The notes: generated by a model not told the origin, from the letters alone. Positions 26,556 through 60,553 are shown, counted from the first letter of the stretch. The stretch: 64,000 bases of DNA from an uncultured Pseudomonadota bacterium (GCA_902788365.1 CADAJN010000003.1:58656-122655); one strand, 5' to 3'. Program-made: numbers and translations.

Positions 26556-26810
26556 TGATTTTTTCCTTCTAAAACATTGATTCTGCGACAATTCTTATGA
26601 AATAAACTCAATCCCGTCAACAGAAGGTTAAACAACACTTTTTTTGTTATATGAATCGGCCACACCATCGGTAATTACGCCATCTCAGCCAGATTCGTGA
26701 AATAATTTTTTATTGTGGAATTTTATACCCACTTTAAACTGCGCGGAGTATAATTCTTTTTTGCTTGTTTTGCAACTGTTTTTTAAGTTATATGAATTTA
26801 GGTTTTATTT

Positions 26811-27150
26811 AAAAAAACTCGGATAGCGTGCGTTATGACGACGTGCAGATAGAAATTCGGCCGAGATACCACGGTCAGAGCCGTGGTATGACAATCAATT
26901 ATAAAAACTCGGATAGCGTGTGTTATGACACAGTGAATTTTAAGCGACGTGTACAAAAGAGGTACACGAGCGAAAAATTTACAAGTCAGAACCAGCTAAA
27001 CGAGTTTTACACGAGTTTAGAAACTCGGATGATGAGCTTAATACGCCGTTGTTTTAGAGCCTTCGGCGCTGCTTACGCAGTGGACGACGTGTAGAAAACT
27101 GCTACACGAGGAGAAAAACAACAAGTAGTAAGCCATTAGACGAGTTTCTT
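26811..27150. repeat. Cluster B of palindromic extragenic elements (3 units, one partial) between the ettA stop and the rpoB start
   Basis: Same termini and central hairpin family (GTGTACAAAAGAGGTACAC / GTGTAGAAAACTGCTACAC). The right terminus contains the ettA stop codon. Confidence 0.8.
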
Positions 27151-30296: not shown

Positions 30297-30336
30297 ATAT
30301 AAAAAAGCCACCCTTATGGTGGTTTTTTTATATTAA
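30281..30336 (+). repeat. tRNA-Arg 3' end plus terminator hairpin; direct repeat copy 1 (att-like)
   Basis: CGCCCAGAGCGCGCCAATATAAAAAAGCCACCCTTATGGTGGTTTTTTTATA; copy 2 at 30466-30521. Confidence 0.7.
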
Positions 30337-30465
30337 CGTAATCAGGCGGCAAAGAACGACCGACAGGCGTTCGGAGCTCAAAGAACGACCGACAGGCGTT
30401 CGGAGCTGAGGTGATGCCGCGCTCTTGTGCGGCTATCGCCGTAAGCCGTTGCGTAGCAACACTTC

Positions 30466-30521
30466 GCCCAGAGCGCGCCAATATAAAAAAACCACCCTTA
30501 TGGTGGTTTTTTTATACCCTT
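30466..30521 (+). repeat. Direct repeat copy 2 of the tRNA-Arg 3' end (17 nt) plus terminator
   Basis: Near-identical to 30281-30336. The intervening 170 bp holds a tandem 29-bp repeat (CAAAGAACGACCGACAGGCGTTCGGAGCT, 2 copies). Confidence 0.7.
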
Positions 30522-33232: not shown

Positions 33233-33467
33233 TTTTTTCTCCATGGTTTTCGGATAACCATAATCTGTTGTCAGTATAACGATTTTCTGTAGCGAATCAA
33301 GCTCAAACGCAAGATTATCCCTATTGACAAGATTCGTTTTATAAATCAGATACGGCATTATCGGACTTGCGCCCGAAGATTGTTACGTCGTGCTAATCTA
33401 TTCTTATAAAAGAAGAAGCGGTAGATGCCTTGACCGCGCAAAGCGCGGAGGCATGACTTGTTATTTA

Positions 33468-33665
33468 AAAACCTCGGATAATGAGCTTAATACGAAGAAA
33501 GTTTTCTCACGCGGTGTAGATAATACTACATAAGTGAAGAGGCATACAAGTAGACACCAGCTAGACGAGGTTAAAACCTCGGATAGCGTGCGTGATTACG
33601 CCGTAATTTTTAGACGCCGCGTAGATAATGCTACGCAAGGAAAAAAATTACAAGTAAGCACCAGC
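33468..33665. repeat. Cluster C of palindromic extragenic elements (2 units; unit 2 overlaps the kdsB 3' end)
   Basis: AAAACCTCGGATAATGAGC...CAAGTAGACACCAGCTAGACGAGGTT, then AAAACCTCGGATAGCGTGCG...ACAAGTAAGCACCAGC. Confidence 0.8.
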
Positions 33666-34437
33666 TTTTGATGTATGGCAGGGAATTGGCCAAATCCTCT
33701 TCCGTGTTAATGTCTGCCGGAGCTTCTTTAACCAGCTTAATATTATCAACCAACATTGCACGCACTTCCATGCCGTTTTCCAAAGCACGCAACTGCTCTA
33801 AAGCCTCACGCTTTTCCAAAACACCGGTCGGCAGTGAAACCATTTTTTGTAACGACGCCGCTTTAAACACATAAATACCGATGTGATAATATAAATCCTG
33901 ATTCGGGCATTTTTCCGGATTACGCGTATATGGTGCCGTAGCGCGAGTAAAATACAAACAGCGCGCTTCTTTTTCGCCCTCTTTCAAACCCATAATGATT
34001 TTGACCACATTCGGGTTGTTTTTATCTTCTTCCGAAGTAATCAGCATACCGCAAGTGGCAATATCGCAACCGGTGCGCTCTACCATTTCAATCAGAGGCA
34101 GCGTTACTTTCGGGTCCACATTGATGTTGTCGCCCTGAAAATCAACAACAATATCATATTTTGTGCCTTCCGGATCCAAAATTTTAAGCGCCGCGGCAAT
34201 ACGGTCGGTGCCGCTCGGCAGATTCGGATCAGTTAAAATCGCCGTAGCGCCGAATTTTTTACATTCATCAACAATGGCCTGATCGCCGGCTGCAATCGCA
34301 ATATCGGTATTTAACGCAGCCTTTACGTTTTCATATACGCGTTGCACCATGGTTTTGCCGTTTATCACGCGCAGTGGTTTATTCGGCAAACGTGTAGCGG
34401 CTAAACGCACCGGCATTAAAGTAATAACTCTGCTCAT
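33631..34437 (-). CDS. kdsB: 3-deoxy-manno-octulosonate cytidylyltransferase
   Basis: PVRLAATRLPNKPL N-terminus and overall KdsB similarity. The last 11 codons (SWCLLVIFFLA) and the stop are encoded by repeat unit C2. Confidence 0.85.
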   Translation of the reverse strand: MSRVITLMPVRLAATRLPNKPLRVINGKTMVQRVYENVKAALNTDIAIAAGDQAIVDECKKFGATAILTDPNLPSGTDRIAAALKILDPEGTKYDIVVDFQGDNINVDPKVTLPLIEMVERTGCDIATCGMLITSEEDKNNPNVVKIIMGLKEGEKEARCLYFTRATAPYTRNPEKCPNQDLYYHIGIYVFKAASLQKMVSLPTGVLEKREALEQLRALENGMEVRAMLVDNIKLVKEAPADINTEEDLANSLPYIKSWCLLVIFFLA

Positions 34438-42899: not shown

Positions 42900-43015
42900 A
42901 ATTGTAAAATTAAAAAGTAAGTAAATTATAATGAAATCGAATTTAGTATAGACAAAAAACAGAGAAATGTCAAGATGAAAGTTACTTCATATGGTGAGTA
43001 TAATCACTGCATTAT

Positions 43016-43124
43016 AAGAACTCGGATAGCATGCGTAGATACGCCGTATCCCTCTTCACGCCGTGTACAAAAAAAGGTACATAAGTGAAGAGGGATACAA
43101 GTAGATACCAGCTAGACGAGGTTT
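43016..43124. repeat. Palindromic extragenic element D (single unit) abutting the ppiase stop codon
   Basis: AACTCGGATAGC...GTATCCCTCTTCAC/GTGAAGAGGGATAC perfect arms...CAAGTAGATACCAGCTAGACGAGGTTTT. Confidence 0.85.
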
Positions 43125-48088: not shown

Positions 48089-48190
48089 ATCCTTTCGTTT
48101 TTATGCTTACGGATATGATATATATAACCGAAAAAACAAAATAAAAGGGGCAGAAAAAAGGATATATTTTTCCAACACCTGTTCAGGCCT

Positions 48191-48294
48191 AAACCTCGGC
48201 TAGCGTGCGTGATTACGCAGTGAATTTGGAGCGTGGTGTAGATAAAGCTACACGAGCGAGAAATTTACAAGTCAGAACCAGCTAGACGAGGTTT
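48191..48294. repeat. Palindromic extragenic element E (single unit) abutting the gcrA stop codon
   Basis: AAACCTCGGCTAGCGTG...GTGTAGATAAAGCTACAC...ACAAGTCAGAACCAGCTAGACGAGGTTTT. Confidence 0.85.
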
Positions 48295-53366: not shown

Positions 53367-54374
53367 ATGAAAAAAATTGCCATTATCGGCGTTACAACCA
53401 GCGCCGGCCGCGAACTCTTAAACATGTTGGAAGAAAACGGTTTTGCCGCAGATAACATTTTTGCCGTTGAAACGGATAGCCCGCTCGGCACGCAAATTTC
53501 ATATGGCGAAGATGTGGATATGGATGTATATAATCTCAAAGATTTTGACTTTGCATCGGCAGAAATTGCCGTTTTCATGACCACACCGGAACTGACCAAA
53601 CACTATGTGCCGCGCGCACTGGCCAAAGGAGCTCGTGTCATTGACGGCACCGGTGCTTATGCCTTAGAAGCCGAAGTGCCGCTTATTATTTGCGGCTTAA
53701 ATGATGAGCAAATCAATGATAACGCCAAAGTGGTAGCTTTGCCATCACCACAGGTTACACAAATTTTATTGCCGCTCAAAAACGTGGCTGCCAAAAACAA
53801 AATCAAACGCATGGTCATTAACACTTATATGGCCGTATCACTTTACGGCAAAGAAGCCATGGACGAATTGTTTAATCAAACCCGCAAAATTTTTATGAAT
53901 GAGCCGTTGGTAGACGACGAAAACATTTTTCACAAGCAAATTGCTTTTAACGTTTTACCGCAAGTCGGAGAATTTATCGGTGATGAAACCAAGTATGAAT
54001 GGGCAATGAATGTTGAAATCAAAAAAATCTTAGACCCGAATATTAAAATTCACGCCAACTGTGCTTTTGTGCCGGCATTTATCGGTATCGGTGCGTTTGT
54101 TAATGTGGAATGTGCCCGCGCCGTTGATGTTGACGATGTGCGTAACATTATGCGCGAAACCAAAGGTGTTGTGGTGTTTGATAAGCACGTTGATTGCGGC
54201 TATGTATCATTAAACGATGCGCAAAGCGAAAGCGATGTTTATGTCAGCCGTCTGCGTCAAGATGTTTCAGTTAACAACGGCTTTAGTTTTTGGTGTGCGG
54301 CAGATGATTTGCGCGCCGGCACAGCCTTAAATGCTTATAATATTCTGCAACTCTATCTGAATAGGAAAAACTAA
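53367..54374 (+). CDS. Aspartate-semialdehyde dehydrogenase family protein (divergent NAD(P)-binding motif)
   Basis: Start at MKKIAIIGVTTSAGREL (GTGAGG RBS). ANCAFVP active-site Cys region. C-terminal dimerisation domain. Confidence 0.65.
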   Translation: MKKIAIIGVTTSAGRELLNMLEENGFAADNIFAVETDSPLGTQISYGEDVDMDVYNLKDFDFASAEIAVFMTTPELTKHYVPRALAKGARVIDGTGAYALEAEVPLIICGLNDEQINDNAKVVALPSPQVTQILLPLKNVAAKNKIKRMVINTYMAVSLYGKEAMDELFNQTRKIFMNEPLVDDENIFHKQIAFNVLPQVGEFIGDETKYEWAMNVEIKKILDPNIKIHANCAFVPAFIGIGAFVNVECARAVDVDDVRNIMRETKGVVVFDKHVDCGYVSLNDAQSESDVYVSRLRQDVSVNNGFSFWCAADDLRAGTALNAYNILQLYLNRKN

Positions 54375-56800
54375 TGCACCATCTGTTTTCTAAAATCTTT
54401 GCACTGTTTTTAACTGTTGCCGTTTTGTTTAGCAGTTCAACGGTTTTTGCGGCCGATGCAACCAAAGCCGCACCGCAGCCGACACCGGCTAAAACAAGTA
54501 TTTTGCCGCAATCGGCAGATTTTAATACCGTAACCACGCAAATTGAAAAAATCCGCAAAAGCCTGGCAAAACCGTCTGTTTCTAAGGAAAAAATTGAGGA
54601 ATACACTTCTTATCTGACCCGCACCGAAGCCGCTATTATGGAAAATCGGCGTGAAATGGAAAAGCAGGTGAAATCTCTGCAAAAACAAATTGACGCCCTA
54701 GGTGAAGGCGGCGAAACGGAAGACGCTTTTATCACTAAGCAACGTGATGAATTGATGCAAAAGTTAGCAACGCAAGACCGCATACTTAAAGAAGCTGATT
54801 TGATGATTGTGCAAATAGAAGACTTAACCGTGCACATTTTAAATGTCCGTAATCAGAAAATATACGGAGAATTGATTACCAAACATTCGGCATTTATAAA
54901 CCCGTTGGTCTTTTTTAACGGTATTAAAGCTTATGTCGTTTATTTTTGGGATGTTACCAAATCGCCGGTTGAGTGGTATCAGAATTTGCCACAAGAGCAG
55001 CGTTCCTATGCACTTTTCAGCATTGTTGTAATGTTTATCATTTTAATGCTAGCGGTTGGACTGGCCGTATTTTTGCGCCGCCTGATTTTGCGCAACTGGG
55101 GCTATAAAGAAGATATTGCCGAACCGAGCTTTAACCGCAAAGTTGTTGCCGCCATTGCCGTGGCCGTGGCACGCGGTTTGATTTCCATGTTCTTGGTCGG
55201 CGGCTGTATTTTGTGGATGGTCAGCACCAAAATTTTTGAAAACAGCCTTTTGGAAAAAATTCTGATGACCACTGCATATATCACCATGTTGGCCATTGTA
55301 GAAACCACAGTTTCGCGAGTGACTTTTGCTCCGCATTATCCGCAATGGCGCTTAGTTAATATTGCCAGTGAAAAAGCCGCTCGCTTTACACGCATGATTT
55401 TCACCTTCATTTTACTCAATGCCATGGCAACAATTCAACTTCTTGTGGCACAATACGCCGAATATCCGATAGACGCTATTCATTTTGCCATGATTATTGC
55501 TTGCGCCGTCAAAGCCTTTTTCCTCATGTGGTTTACTAAAGTGGCATTTGATACATATAAATCGGAAACTTCCGAAGAAGCCGGTGAAATTGAAGAAAAT
55601 GAAGACCATGGCTTTAAAATGATTATTTTCAGCCACATCTTTTGCTTTGGCACACTTTTGCTGTCATTGCTCGGTTATCCGGAATTGTCATTGTTCATCT
55701 TTAACCATATCATCTTATCATTGATTTTGTGCGGTTTATTTGAAGTTTTACGTCGTTCCTTCATTGATATTTTGCGCAAGCTCATACTTTCCGGCCCTTG
55801 GGCTAAGGGCTTTCATCACTATAAAAAAACGGCCGAAAAGGTTGATTTTTGGTTACGTGCCATTATCAATCCGGCCATGGCTCTGGCTTTGATTTTTGTA
55901 TTATTGACATTCTGGGGGTTGCCGGGAGATTTGATGCTGGCTGCCCTCAAAAAATTGTTGTTTGGGTTTAAAATCGGCGGCATTCAAATTTCATTGCTTG
56001 CCATTATGCTCGGCATCGGTGTCTTTTTCGGCTCGCTTGCCTTAATGCGCATCATCAAAAACAAACTGGCCACCAATGTTTTGGCTAAAATAGATATGGA
56101 TGACGGCATTCGCCATTCGCTGATTTCGGGTTTCAGCTTTATCGGCTTTATTATGGCGGCGCTTTTGGCAATTATTGCCGTCGGCATAGATTTAACTAAC
56201 CTTGCTTTCATCGCCGGTGCTTTATCGGTCGGTATCGGTTTCGGCCTGCAAGATGTAATTAAAAACTTAGTTGCCGGTATCATTATTTTATTTGAACGCC
56301 CGTTCCGTGTCGGCGACTGGGTGGTTTTAGGCGGCGTTGAAGGAAAAATTCAGCAAATAAACATTCGCTCTACCGAACTGTTGAGCTTTGATAAAACCAG
56401 CGTAATTATTCCGAATGCTACGCTGATTTCTTCAACCGTAACCAATAAAACACATGATGACAATATGTCGCGACAAAATGTTACGGTTGGCGTGGCTTAC
56501 GGCTCGGACGTAGAAAAAGTCAGCAAAATTTTATTGGAATGCGCCGCTGAGCATAAATTGGTGATGAAAAATCCGGCGCCGTATGTGTTGTTTAAGGATT
56601 TCGGTGCCAGCAGCCTGGATTTTGAATTACGTTTTTATGTAAAAGACATTAACTCCGGTTGGACGGCGCCGAGCGATTTGCGCTATATGATAAATAAGCG
56701 CTTTATTGAGGAAGGTATTGAAATTCCGTTCCCGCAAGTGGTGGTTCACAACGGCGACGCCAATACGGAAAAAACAATACCTATTGAGGGAAATATATAA
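54374..56800 (+). CDS. Mechanosensitive channel, MscK/KefA-like (MscS family) with a periplasmic N-terminal coiled-coil domain
   Basis: 808 aa. MscS core FERPFRVGDWVVLGGVEGKIQQINIRSTEL. Confidence 0.85.
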   Translation: MHHLFSKIFALFLTVAVLFSSSTVFAADATKAAPQPTPAKTSILPQSADFNTVTTQIEKIRKSLAKPSVSKEKIEEYTSYLTRTEAAIMENRREMEKQVKSLQKQIDALGEGGETEDAFITKQRDELMQKLATQDRILKEADLMIVQIEDLTVHILNVRNQKIYGELITKHSAFINPLVFFNGIKAYVVYFWDVTKSPVEWYQNLPQEQRSYALFSIVVMFIILMLAVGLAVFLRRLILRNWGYKEDIAEPSFNRKVVAAIAVAVARGLISMFLVGGCILWMVSTKIFENSLLEKILMTTAYITMLAIVETTVSRVTFAPHYPQWRLVNIASEKAARFTRMIFTFILLNAMATIQLLVAQYAEYPIDAIHFAMIIACAVKAFFLMWFTKVAFDTYKSETSEEAGEIEENEDHGFKMIIFSHIFCFGTLLLSLLGYPELSLFIFNHIILSLILCGLFEVLRRSFIDILRKLILSGPWAKGFHHYKKTAEKVDFWLRAIINPAMALALIFVLLTFWGLPGDLMLAALKKLLFGFKIGGIQISLLAIMLGIGVFFGSLALMRIIKNKLATNVLAKIDMDDGIRHSLISGFSFIGFIMAALLAIIAVGIDLTNLAFIAGALSVGIGFGLQDVIKNLVAGIIILFERPFRVGDWVVLGGVEGKIQQINIRSTELLSFDKTSVIIPNATLISSTVTNKTHDDNMSRQNVTVGVAYGSDVEKVSKILLECAAEHKLVMKNPAPYVLFKDFGASSLDFELRFYVKDINSGWTAPSDLRYMINKRFIEEGIEIPFPQVVVHNGDANTEKTIPIEGNI

Positions 56801-56958
56801 AAAAACCGCCCCTTTCGGAGCGGATTTCTTATTGGTGCCGATTAGGAGATGGCGCTGCGCTTTCGCTTGCGGATCTTCTCTGCATTGCGACGCTTGCCGC
56901 AATGCTACTCGATTCCGACGCCCGTCGGGCATTCTTCTCCCCTTCCGATAATCAATAA
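56801..56958 (-). repeat. tRNA-Thr-linked 158-bp unit, copy 2: terminator, TTGGTGCCG, GC-rich structured body, CGATAATCAAT
   Basis: Near-identical tandem copy of 56959-57116. Each unit carries an approximately 17-nt copy of the tRNA-Thr 3' end. Confidence 0.75.
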
Positions 56959-57116
56959 AAAAACCGCCCCTTTCGGAGCGGATTTCTTATTGGTGCCGGT
57001 TAGGAGATGGCGCTGCGCTTTCGCTTGCGGATCTTCTCTGCATTGCGACGCTTGCCGCAATGCTACTCGATTCCGACGCCCGTCGGGCGTTCTTCTCCCC
57101 TTCCGATAACCAATAA
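56959..57116 (-). repeat. tRNA-Thr-linked 158-bp unit, copy 1
   Basis: AAAAAAACCGCCCCTTTCGGAGCGGATTTCTTATTGGTGCCGGTTAGGAGATGGCGCTGCGCTTTCGCTTGCGG...internal hairpin GCATTGCG/CGCAATGC. Confidence 0.75.
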
Positions 57117-57148
57117 AAAAACCGCCCCTTTCAGAGCGGAGTTTTTAT

Positions 57149-57224
<76 letters not shown>

Positions 57225-57395
57225 ATAGCAAAAACATACATAACCCACTTTTTCATATTTTGCAAGCAAAAAAATACCCGCGTTTCACAAAAAATTTTGC
57301 TCTTTTAACATTTTTGCCAAAAAAACTTGACTTCATTTCCAAAAAAATGTATTCTTAATCCAATCATTTATTACTTACATATAACTTTCAATATT

Positions 57396-57671
57396 ATGAA
57401 CAAGATTTCTATTAAAGACGTTAGAAGTGCGATTGTGTATGTGTGCCAAAATGATGGGCTTCATCTGCAGGACATCAGCGATGAGAAGCTCGCTCGGCTG
57501 GACCTTGTTAAGGACTTGAACATCGGCAATGTTCGACTTGTTAACGTGGCAACCGAACTGCAACGCACCCACAATTTCAACCTGCCGTGGGAGGTGCTCC
57601 GCACCCGCGAGGACAACACCGTCGGCACATTCTTGAAGGTCATCAATCAGTATTTATCATCTGAATGCTGA
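57396..57671 (+). CDS. Hypothetical small protein (91 aa), GC-richer than its surroundings
   Basis: Start MNKISIKD. Followed by a hairpin terminator at 57697-57730. Confidence 0.4.
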   Translation: MNKISIKDVRSAIVYVCQNDGLHLQDISDEKLARLDLVKDLNIGNVRLVNVATELQRTHNFNLPWEVLRTREDNTVGTFLKVINQYLSSEC

Positions 57672-58635: not shown

Positions 58636-58826
58636 ATTTTGTTCCTTTTCTATGTTAGAATAAACTAATACAGAAGAAAATCAATAGGTTTATTAAAAAA
58701 TTCGATAGTTGATGAGAAAGTGCTATTTTCAGAAAATAAACAATCGGACTGAAAATTATGAAAATTTTAAGAAATTAAGCTACAAATTAGAAGAAGTAAG
58801 TGAAATTATATACTTGAAAGAATAAC

Positions 58827-60140: not shown

Positions 60141-60553
60141 TGAAAAAATAAATAGTGTCATGCCTATTTTGCCAACAGGCAAAATTCAAGGCATCTTCAA
60201 ATTAAAAAAATTAGTGCTTCGCAAAGACCAGATTCCTTGATGACCTGACGCGCAGCGCAGGTCAAGGAATGACATAAAAAAATAAAAAGTCCGATAAATT
60301 TAGGAAAAAATGCAGTTTTGATGAACGACACAATCGGACTTGGTAAGAGCACGTTCCAACAAAAGCAAAAACCCGCCTCAAGGGCGGGTTTCTTGCATTG
60401 GTGCGCTTTTGCTATGCGACTATCGGACTGAAAATGCGCAAGAATATAGAGAACTGGGATATAAAATAGAGAAAGTATTGGAAAATATCTAAAAGCATAT
60501 TGAAAGAAAATTTGTAGTTTTGTATTCTGAACAAATGTTTTAGGAGATTAATT

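Follow-up and report, generated by a model that had tools for sequence, protein, structure and literature searches.

Downstream of a gene for tRNA-Thr(CGT), in a 64,000-nt stretch of DNA from an uncultured Pseudomonadota bacterium (GCA_902788365.1 CADAJN010000003.1:58656-122655; this whole stretch is hereafter the window), lies a short tandem array of intrinsic terminators, GC-rich bodies and copies of the 3' end of that tRNA. On the minus strand, the order is tRNA-Thr(CGT), terminator T1, unit 1, terminator T2, unit 2 and terminator T3, each unit being 124 nt long (Table 1). Unit 1 begins 34 nt past the CCA of the tRNA, and T3 abuts the stop codon (56798-56800) of a convergent gene (54374-56800, plus strand) that encodes an 808-aa mechanosensitive channel and that T3 is symmetric enough to terminate as well. 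Both by definition and by architecture, the two units are tRNA-linked repeats (TLRs), a class described in Escherichia coli.

Tandem Repeats Finder reports, at 56797-57166, 2.3 copies of a 158-bp period with 97% matches and no indels (score 698). Within a period, the intrinsic terminator is joined to a GC-rich body of 106 nt, to which the last 18 nt of the tRNA are appended in copy. The tRNA gene (57149-57224), found by both ARAGORN and Rfam (65.3 bits with the tRNA model), ends in ATCTCCTAACCGGCACCA, and a search for this 18-mer with up to 3 mismatches returns three sites, which are the tRNA itself, 56991-57008 (0 mismatches) and 56833-56850 (1 mismatch). The terminator word recurs, at the same tolerance, at 56802, 56960, 57118, 61738 and 62980; shuffled sequence contains no match to either query. 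A terminator and promoter scan places three intrinsic terminators on the minus strand (57139-57122, 56981-56964 and 56823-56806) and finds no promoter-like site inside the Thr(CGT) units or between them and the tRNA. An earlier reading made from the bare sequence (the sequence-only reading) had described these 158-nt units with their terminator and tRNA-3'-end copy, as well as their internal hairpins and a CGATAA(T/C)CAAT motif, and all of this holds.

TLRs are defined as lying directly behind a tRNA or rRNA gene, in its operon and orientation, with 3'-terminal 18-19 bp identical to the 3' end of that gene (PMC8144298). Ten loci of E. coli account for 22 TLRs, one to five at each, and the class is credited to Egan & Landy 1978 and Rudd 1999, as summarised in PMC8144298. 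The units studied here are directly downstream of tRNA-Thr(CGT) and on its strand, their tails match the tRNA 3' end at 18/18 (unit 1, an exact run of 18 nt) and 17/18 positions (unit 2), and there are two of them, with several other stable-RNA loci of the window carrying units too. The sequence-only reading, which proposed small non-autonomous elements or relics of integration, had overlooked this known class and its RtT members (PMC8144298). In E. coli RtT (or rttR; tyrT-tyrV, RF00391), tandem units likewise sit behind a tRNA on the same strand and end in its last 18-19 nt, an inverted head is followed by a T-arm copy, and head and tail close a helix around internal hairpins. There are four RtT units at tyrT-tyrV, each with the tail ATCCTTCCCCCACCACCA, the tyrT head GGGGAAGGAT is the reverse complement of the 3' part of tRNA-Tyr, and the short motifs GAGAAG, TC(G/A)AGCG and GCGCAGCGC are common to both systems. 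What differs is the period (158 nt here, 178 nt there), the strong terminator that each unit possesses here, the host, which is an alphaproteobacterium, and the tRNA, which is Thr.

Two other E. coli systems resemble the present one, and the first serves as the template for the mechanism put forward below. RrA, RrB and RrF, which lie between T1 and T2 of rrnA/B/D, present the same succession of gene, terminator, body, 18-nt copy and terminator (in rrnB, 5S, T1, body, AACTGCCAGGCATCAAAT and T2), and experiments show that RrB is made by T1 read-through, with both its ends 3 nt past an 18-nt motif, which is attributed to RNase E (PMC8144298). Unlike the units here, they are found behind 5S rRNA as a single unit and bind Hfq and CsrA through GGA loops; they have no sequence similarity to our units, and a model derived from the window does not detect them. 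As for 3'ETS-leuZ (glyW-cysT-leuZ), it is a small RNA freed from a tRNA 3' trailer by RNase E (PMC8144298), which contains no copy of a tRNA 3' end, is not tandemly repeated and is upstream of the operon terminator, whereas the units here are beyond it.

Each unit is built from its own tRNA. At its 5' end, tRNA positions ~49-76 reappear as a diverged reverse complement (the head), with a TGG opposite the CCA. In hairpin 1, the 3' strand directly repeats the T-loop and the 5' strand of the T-stem (e.g. GTAGGTTCGGAGTC in the unit for GTAGGTTCGAATCC in tRNA-Gln); a GC-rich insert comes next, and the tail corresponds to tRNA positions 59-76. When 16 units were compared with 9 tRNAs, the cognate tRNA scored best for 13 tails, 12 heads and 12 T-arm copies (about 2 being expected by chance), most of the non-cognate results being ties between Thr(CGT) and Arg(TCT), whose T-arm is common to both. 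E. coli RtT obeys the same rule. In all units, the predicted fold is a head-tail closing helix around 2-4 hairpins. There are three body types, A (Val, Pro, Arg(ACG) and Gln), B (Arg(TCT) and Thr(GGT)) and C, which is the Thr(CGT) body. In Smith-Waterman comparisons against dinucleotide shuffles, unit 1 resembles type A with p=0.007-0.07 (p=0.007 with the tRNA-Val unit Val1), while type B gives no similarity (p=0.9 with the type-B orphan unit near 63 kb); type A resembles RtT copy 4 with p=0.01-0.09. For a covariance model made only from the Val-, Pro-, Arg- and Gln-linked units, the two best matches within 56500-57400 are the two Thr units, both in register, with 9.1 and 7.1 bits (E=0.014 and 0.053). 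The short motifs that the sequence-only reading saw in both the Thr and tRNA-Pro units exist, and the kinship in layout stands, but the sequence similarity is statistically marginal (p=0.027 between unit 1 and tRNA-Pro unit 2). That the Thr(CGT)-type body is multi-copy is not supported, this locus being the sole one in all the DNA compared.

Substitutions between copies preserve the fold of the tRNA-sense strand. Units 1 and 2 differ at 3 of 124 positions, by G-to-A in the head, C-to-T in the tail and C-to-U in hairpin 1. The head and tail changes fall on two bases that face each other in the closing helix UUGGUUA:UAACCGG, which is the minimum-free-energy helix when the 3' ACCA is left free, and the hairpin-1 change turns a C-G into a U.G pair. 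In unit 2, the head thus varies along with the tail of the same unit, although the unit 1 tail, on the other side of the terminator, is closer to it. In the related metagenome contig L014, the copy at this locus has the same U.G change and 4 further substituted nt, all within one tetraloop. Among nine type-A units, in an alignment fitted to the model, 89% of the cells pair, compared with 79% in shuffles, the double changes (8 pairs, 18 cells) are reached by 1/500 and 0/500 shuffles, and the covariation score is 0.243 versus 0.107, slid controls giving 0.03-0.05. On the tRNA strand, helices P2-P4 contain 11 G.U cells and 2 A.C cells, and the Thr hairpin-1 change is C-to-U, which points to pairing in RNA rather than in DNA.

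Two other identities were tried for the Thr units and rejected. A decayed tandem tRNA gene does not fit, because both CCA and the 3' strand of the T-stem are present in the head as their complements (TGG... for CCA), and no tRNA has these at its 5' end. A coding function was suggested by unit 2 (from 56932 downward, minus strand) and the L014 copy (from ~5252 onward), where the hairpin-1 C-to-T creates an ATG 4 nt past a Shine-Dalgarno-like GGGGAG; it opens an arginine-rich frame reading GCG CAG CGC, which is the frame of the protamine-like tpr open reading frame of E. coli RtT across GCGCAGCGC. However, unit 1 has ACG at this position and 158 nt is not a multiple of 3, which makes coding unlikely. 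As a separate observation, tRNA-Thr(CGT) (57149-57224) and tRNA-Pro(CGG) (8936-9012) each have one non-standard T-stem pair in the Rfam alignments; these tRNA sequences are identical in the related contigs L014 and L005.

The Thr units have company. The window holds six others (one linked to tRNA-Val, three to tRNA-Pro, one to tRNA-Arg(TCT) and one orphan), which makes eight in 64 kb, and four of its five tRNA genes carry units, tRNA-Gly alone having none. Behind tRNA-Pro, the tRNA 3' end, the terminator and the next head form a near-perfect palindrome of ~88 nt, which Rfam takes for a miRNA precursor and which includes a non-functional spacer, ACACAT/ATGTGT; in the first tRNA-Pro unit, head (ATGGCGGG) and tail (CCCGCCAT) have drifted jointly away from the tRNA. 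Behind tRNA-Arg(TCT), there are two copies of hairpin 1, which form a perfect tandem repeat of 29 bp (30350-30407). Units outside the window came from two pattern scans. With GTTCGNANTCAAGCGAAAGGC, genome contigs gave 7 loci, of which 3 are true relatives, all of them metagenome-assembled genomes (MAGs) of rumen Alphaproteobacteria (goat, roe-deer and reindeer), with units behind tRNA-Arg(ACG) (an 18-nt exact tail), tRNA-Pro and tRNA-Gln; the remaining four match by chance, two of them lying in dense, coding-looking sequence and two being judged only by unrelated taxa and the lack of an adjacent tRNA. With GCAAGCGAAAGCGCAGCGCC, metagenome contigs gave 21 loci, of which only L014 is real, the other 20 being matches to the 20-mer alone with no tRNA. 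In Rfam, the whole window yields nothing but five tRNAs, and thus no RtT, at the gathering threshold, and the matches that appear under permissive settings are terminator look-alikes (Thr, Leu and Trp leaders; miRNA hairpins) plus one sub-threshold RtT.

Units vary between strains, which is in line with the sequence-only reading. L014 has, at the Thr(CGT) locus, a single unit and a 37-nt fragment fused to the stop codon of the channel gene (1.3 units), where the window has two units, and the first tRNA-Pro unit of L005 is a mosaic of units 1 and 2 behind the window's tRNA-Pro. The tail-plus-terminator repeats, 54 nt long, are 93-98% identical.

A second tRNA-Thr gene accounts for the copies further along the window. 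This tRNA-Thr(GGT), whose 3' end reads ...CAGCGGCACCA (also given as ...TTATCAGCGGCACCA), is carried by the sister contig L002 (20486-20560), just past the point where the window ends; L002 equals the window up to about 58.84 kb and is divergent after. Behind this gene, L002 has a terminator and then a unit, with 81% identity over 360 nt to the region of the orphan unit. The sequence-only reading rightly saw that the module order of the array recurs near 63 kb (62979-63191) and that a terminator with a TGGTGCCGCC stub lies at 61736-61779, and it wrongly took the 63-kb copy for a relative of the Thr(CGT) units, since this copy has another body type and derives from tRNA-Thr(GGT). The TGGTGCCGC matches at 61.77 and 63.01 kb are likewise explained by this nearby gene, which is the very outcome that the sequence-only reading had named as speaking against it. 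Its talk of relics has fared better at 61.74 kb, where the stub does look like the remnant of a recombination junction, because homology with L014 (96.7% over 1.38 kb, window 61778-60397) starts exactly there, after DNA specific to the window's strain. In L014, whose channel ortholog is 96% identical, the equivalent point is immediately preceded by an entire tRNA-Thr(GGT)-linked unit, and the window has extra genes between the stub and tRNA-Thr(GGT).

The same comparison reveals a filled and an empty site. Where the window has a module without unit at 60364-60406, L014 has, at the orthologous position, GCGCACCAAT and then a type-B unit with a terminator on either side. All three terminators (two in L014, one in the window) are mutually different, and gene conversion among paralogous modules therefore fits better than precise excision. 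Tail-plus-terminator modules of this kind recur at gene borders, around 60.40, 61.77, 63.0 and ~64.7 kb.

Table 1. Position of the units, their parts and the associated terminators in the window
Feature	Position	Strand	Evidence or remark
tRNA-Thr(CGT), CCA encoded	57149..57224	-	ARAGORN, Rfam; last 18 nt, ATCTCCTAACCGGCACCA, copied in unit tails
Terminator T1: AU-rich spacer, hairpin CCGCTCTGAAAGGGGCGG, T7 tract	57115..57148	-	Terminator scan, sequence; one G-C pair fewer than T2/T3
Unit 1, 124 nt	56991..57114	-	Top match of type-A covariance model in region, in register
Unit 1, head	57114-57092	-	Diverged inverted copy of tRNA 3' part
Unit 1, hairpin 1	57091-57076	-	3' strand GGGCGTCGGAATC copies tRNA T-arm
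Unit 1, hairpin P3	57040-57063	-	Followed by motif CAAGCGAAAGCGCAGCGCC
Unit 1, tail	56991-57008	-	18/18 to tRNA 3' end
Terminator T2: hairpin CCGCTCCGAAAGGGGCGG, GAAA loop, T7 tract	56957..56990	-	Terminator scan
Unit 2, 124 nt	56833..56956	-	3 differences from unit 1; tail 56833-56850, 17/18
Terminator T3	56799..56832	-	Terminator scan; hairpin identical to that of T2
Orphan unit, type B	63012..63147	-	Hairpin 1, GGACTTACG/CGTAAGTCC, copies tRNA-Thr(GGT) T-arm
Orphan unit, tail TCAGCGGCACCA	within 63012..63147	-	Last 12 nt of tRNA-Thr(GGT)
Orphan unit, flanking terminators	63148-63181 and 62979-63009	-	
Stub GCGCACCAAT preceding orphan unit	63182-63191	-	
61.74-kb stub: tail remnant GGCGGCACCA and terminator	61736..61779	-	Tail remnant at 61770-61779
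Unit-less junction module: GCGCACCAAT and one terminator	60364..60406	-	
tRNA-Val-linked unit	5002-5155	-	
tRNA-Pro-linked units, three, diverged	about 9050-9516	+	Compensatory hairpin changes
tRNA-Arg(TCT)-linked unit	30332-30480	+	17-nt exact tail, terminator 98% identical

The 7.7 kb between tRNA-Thr(GGT) and tRNA-Thr(CGT) differ in gene content from L014 and look like a hotspot in which cassettes are shuffled. They hold small accessory genes (YgjV-like, an alpha/beta hydrolase, a weak HD-domain match, GNAT acetyltransferases and two without family match), parted by a repeated module that contains an inverted repeat, GTCCGAT...(~45 nt)...ATCGGAC, in which AGTCCGAT equals the T-loop region of tRNA-Thr(GGT). 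This module is found at 58693-58750, 60289-60566, 61660-61796 and 62859-63350, and in L002 to the equivalent of about 64.9 kb in the window, several copies being accompanied by a CACCA stub and a terminator. Elsewhere in the window, there is an unrelated family of ~106-nt units (17769-18185, with four in tandem, 26809-27148, 33463-33677, 43012-43123 and 48186-48294), each with a long perfect inverted repeat (e.g. GAAAGTTTTCTCAC / GTGAGAAAACTTTC) enclosing a second hairpin (GTGTAG...CTACAT), and this family has no Rfam match at the gathering threshold.

On balance, we consider it probable that the Thr units give rise to structured RNAs that are transcribed by read-through, processed in the manner of a tRNA and multiplied at the DNA level by unequal recombination. 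Apparently without a promoter of their own, they would be transcribed from the tRNA-Thr promoter by read-through of T1, which is one G-C pair short of the other two terminators, much as RrB is. The copy of the tRNA 3' end, followed by the AU-rich AUAAGAAAU, would be cut and trimmed by RNase E and exonucleases like the end of the tRNA itself, so that the read-through transcript would be chopped once per 158-nt period. The predicted products are stable, end-clamped structured RNAs of about 125-158 nt, one per period. As for the pair, it is probably of recent date and due to unequal crossing-over, with the 54-nt direct repeats of tail plus terminator as the points of exchange, and recombination of the same type may gain, lose and shuffle units between strains, which fits with the one unit and 37-nt fragment of L014 and with the mosaic tRNA-Pro unit of L005.

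Several points weigh against this reading. Read-through, processing and RNA stability are all steps that we infer, from RrB and from the anatomy of the units. The compensation in the closing helix is suggestive and not proven, since a second register exists in which the changes are non-compensatory, and the better folding of the tRNA-sense strand, seen in 16 of 17 units, comes from energies uncorrected for base composition. Sequence profiles (nhmmer) of types A, B and C detect neither one another nor E. coli RtT. With the Rfam RtT model (RF00391, threshold 45 bits), which hard-codes tRNA-Tyr ends and gives its E. coli controls 133-138 bits, the Thr units have no match at E<=10 and the best score in the window is 15.2 bits (tRNA-Pro unit 3). 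The type-A covariance model does rank the four E. coli RtT copies 1-4 in their locus (15.6-7.7 bits, E=4e-4 to 0.08), but much of this score is due to the ends that copy the tRNA. Shared ancestry with the bodies of E. coli TLRs is therefore not established, and pairwise similarity between our units and these TLRs is marginal (p=0.01-0.12, Smith-Waterman versus shuffles). The units are also patchily distributed. In relatives whose channel ortholog is 69-72% identical, there are no units near the sampled tRNAs, and across channel orthologs at 69-81% identity the tRNA-Thr arrangement does not follow and units are absent. The 81% relative (L031, ~3704-3818) has tRNA-Thr(CGT) beside the channel gene in the opposite orientation, and a 72% relative (L032, 17504-17620) has a tRNA-Val(TAC) that reads the same as the window's and is followed by a plain terminator and no unit. 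Such patchiness means that, in the course of evolution, lineages can do without the units, as would suit a dispensable or selfish element, and it leaves some probability to an origin as a selfish element or by-product.

The sequence-only reading had favoured serial attachment (att) sites or small mobile elements, with the 3' end of tRNA-Thr as target, and both can be weighed against what the units look like. If an integrase had repeatedly targeted the block from T-loop to 3' end, the bodies would be remains of elements and the tails displaced attB halves. The identity block of our units, from T-loop to CCA over 17-19 nt, resembles the att cores of tRNA-integrating elements, and attL/attR of islands and prophages share with this locus both direct tRNA 3'-end repeats that start in the T-loop and an association with strain-variable DNA. 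The 7.7-kb region, with its non-L014 gene content and tail-plus-terminator modules at gene borders, and the stub sitting exactly at the breakpoint of strain-specific DNA go the same way. Repeats of the tRNA end bracket DNA absent from related strains at the 61.74-kb stub and at the filled/empty site; at Thr(CGT), only the 106-nt body is bracketed. Yet Pfam assignments reveal no recombinase, integrase or transposase among the window genes around the locus, the island genes or the sister contig, so the mobility machinery that this reading calls for is missing from the genes flanking the units. Nor is the 3' end of tRNA-Thr supported as a target, the same architecture being found behind tRNA-Val, Pro, Arg(TCT), Arg(ACG), Gln and E. 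coli Tyr, with pieces of its own tRNA in each unit. The bodies measure only ~106 nt, conservative site-specific recombination does not yield an inverted head or a further copy of the T-arm, an inverted tRNA copy and RNA-type covariation are foreign to att sites, the fold is kept by substitutions, and the terminators around the polymorphic unit suggest gene conversion. In addition, E. coli has the same architecture behind 5S rRNA, which is not known to serve as attB. We thus find relics of att sites quite improbable. Very improbable, in our view, is a non-autonomous element akin to a miniature inverted-repeat transposable element, landing at tRNA 3' ends or terminators and carrying a terminator with it. 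Head and tail would be its terminal inverted repeats, a terminator-plus-unit indel does separate strains at a site without tRNA gene, and eight units in 64 kb with a patchy distribution among related species would be in character. However, the terminal repeats differ for every tRNA, which leaves no single end for a transposase to bind, the Thr(CGT)-type body exists at one locus only, there is no target-site duplication beyond the tRNA end, no transposase is nearby and the three body types are mutually without significant similarity.

A functionless by-product of DNA metabolism is unlikely, if a little less so. Here, quasi-palindrome template switching at a bidirectional terminator would have produced the inverted head, and slippage or unequal crossover the direct copies, the hairpins lasting only because palindromes correct themselves. 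The duplication is recent, since the tandem copies are 97% identical. This reading would account for the zig-zag layout (forward tRNA, inverted head, forward T-arm copy), for the tRNA-Pro palindrome taking in a non-functional spacer and for units that relatives can do without, and correction by template switching also yields paired changes in two arms. It does not explain the GC-rich inserts between the tRNA pieces, it runs counter to the excess of G.U over A.C cells, it fits poorly with a unit 2 head that tracks its own distant tail rather than the nearer one, and it is at odds with the discrete, abundant and protein-bound RNAs that E. coli TLRs produce (PMC8144298). None of these alternatives explains together the RNA-type covariation and the tRNA-specific ends at eight different tRNAs.

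One broader idea is worth stating, although it is a long shot. TLRs might be a recurrent copy-back product at the 3' ends of any stable-RNA gene rather than one conserved RNA gene, the terminated or read-through 3' end snapping back on the terminator hairpin and being extended by template switching or reverse transcription, which would leave an inverted copy of the last ~28 nt of the tRNA, then a direct copy, around unrelated GC-rich inserts. If true, this would explain why the same tRNA-specific head, T-arm copy and tail occur in three dissimilar body types (A, B and C) of one genome and in E. coli. On the same idea, recombination at the resulting tail-plus-terminator modules would be what moves small gene cassettes about between tRNA-Thr(GGT) and tRNA-Thr(CGT).

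The channel protein is encoded on metagenome scaffolds of ENA. A GcrA gene among the neighbours points to Alphaproteobacteria, and the channel homologs that have a source name come from MAGs of Alphaproteobacteria, with one Pseudomonadota exception among the close ones; the TLR architecture is found here in an uncultured rumen/gut alphaproteobacterium. In the literature that was searched, all examples of TLR/RtT are from Gammaproteobacteria (Enterobacterales and Pasteurellaceae), and the tRNA-linked TLRs of E. coli, on record since 1978, have had no function assigned, nor does PMC8144298 offer an origin for them. The present findings have implications for (i) the distribution of TLRs, whose architecture extends beyond the gammaproteobacterial examples, at high density, with three body types and with polymorphism between strains, (ii) annotation, since such modules should not be called att sites, tRNA pseudogenes or mobile elements, (iii) the way in which units are assembled, the own-tRNA rule for head, hairpin 1 and tail being made explicit and valid for E. 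coli RtT too and (iv) the old question of what TLRs are for, to which a processed RNA, and the presence or absence of CCA in the tails of lineages whose tRNA genes do not encode it, may now provide handles.

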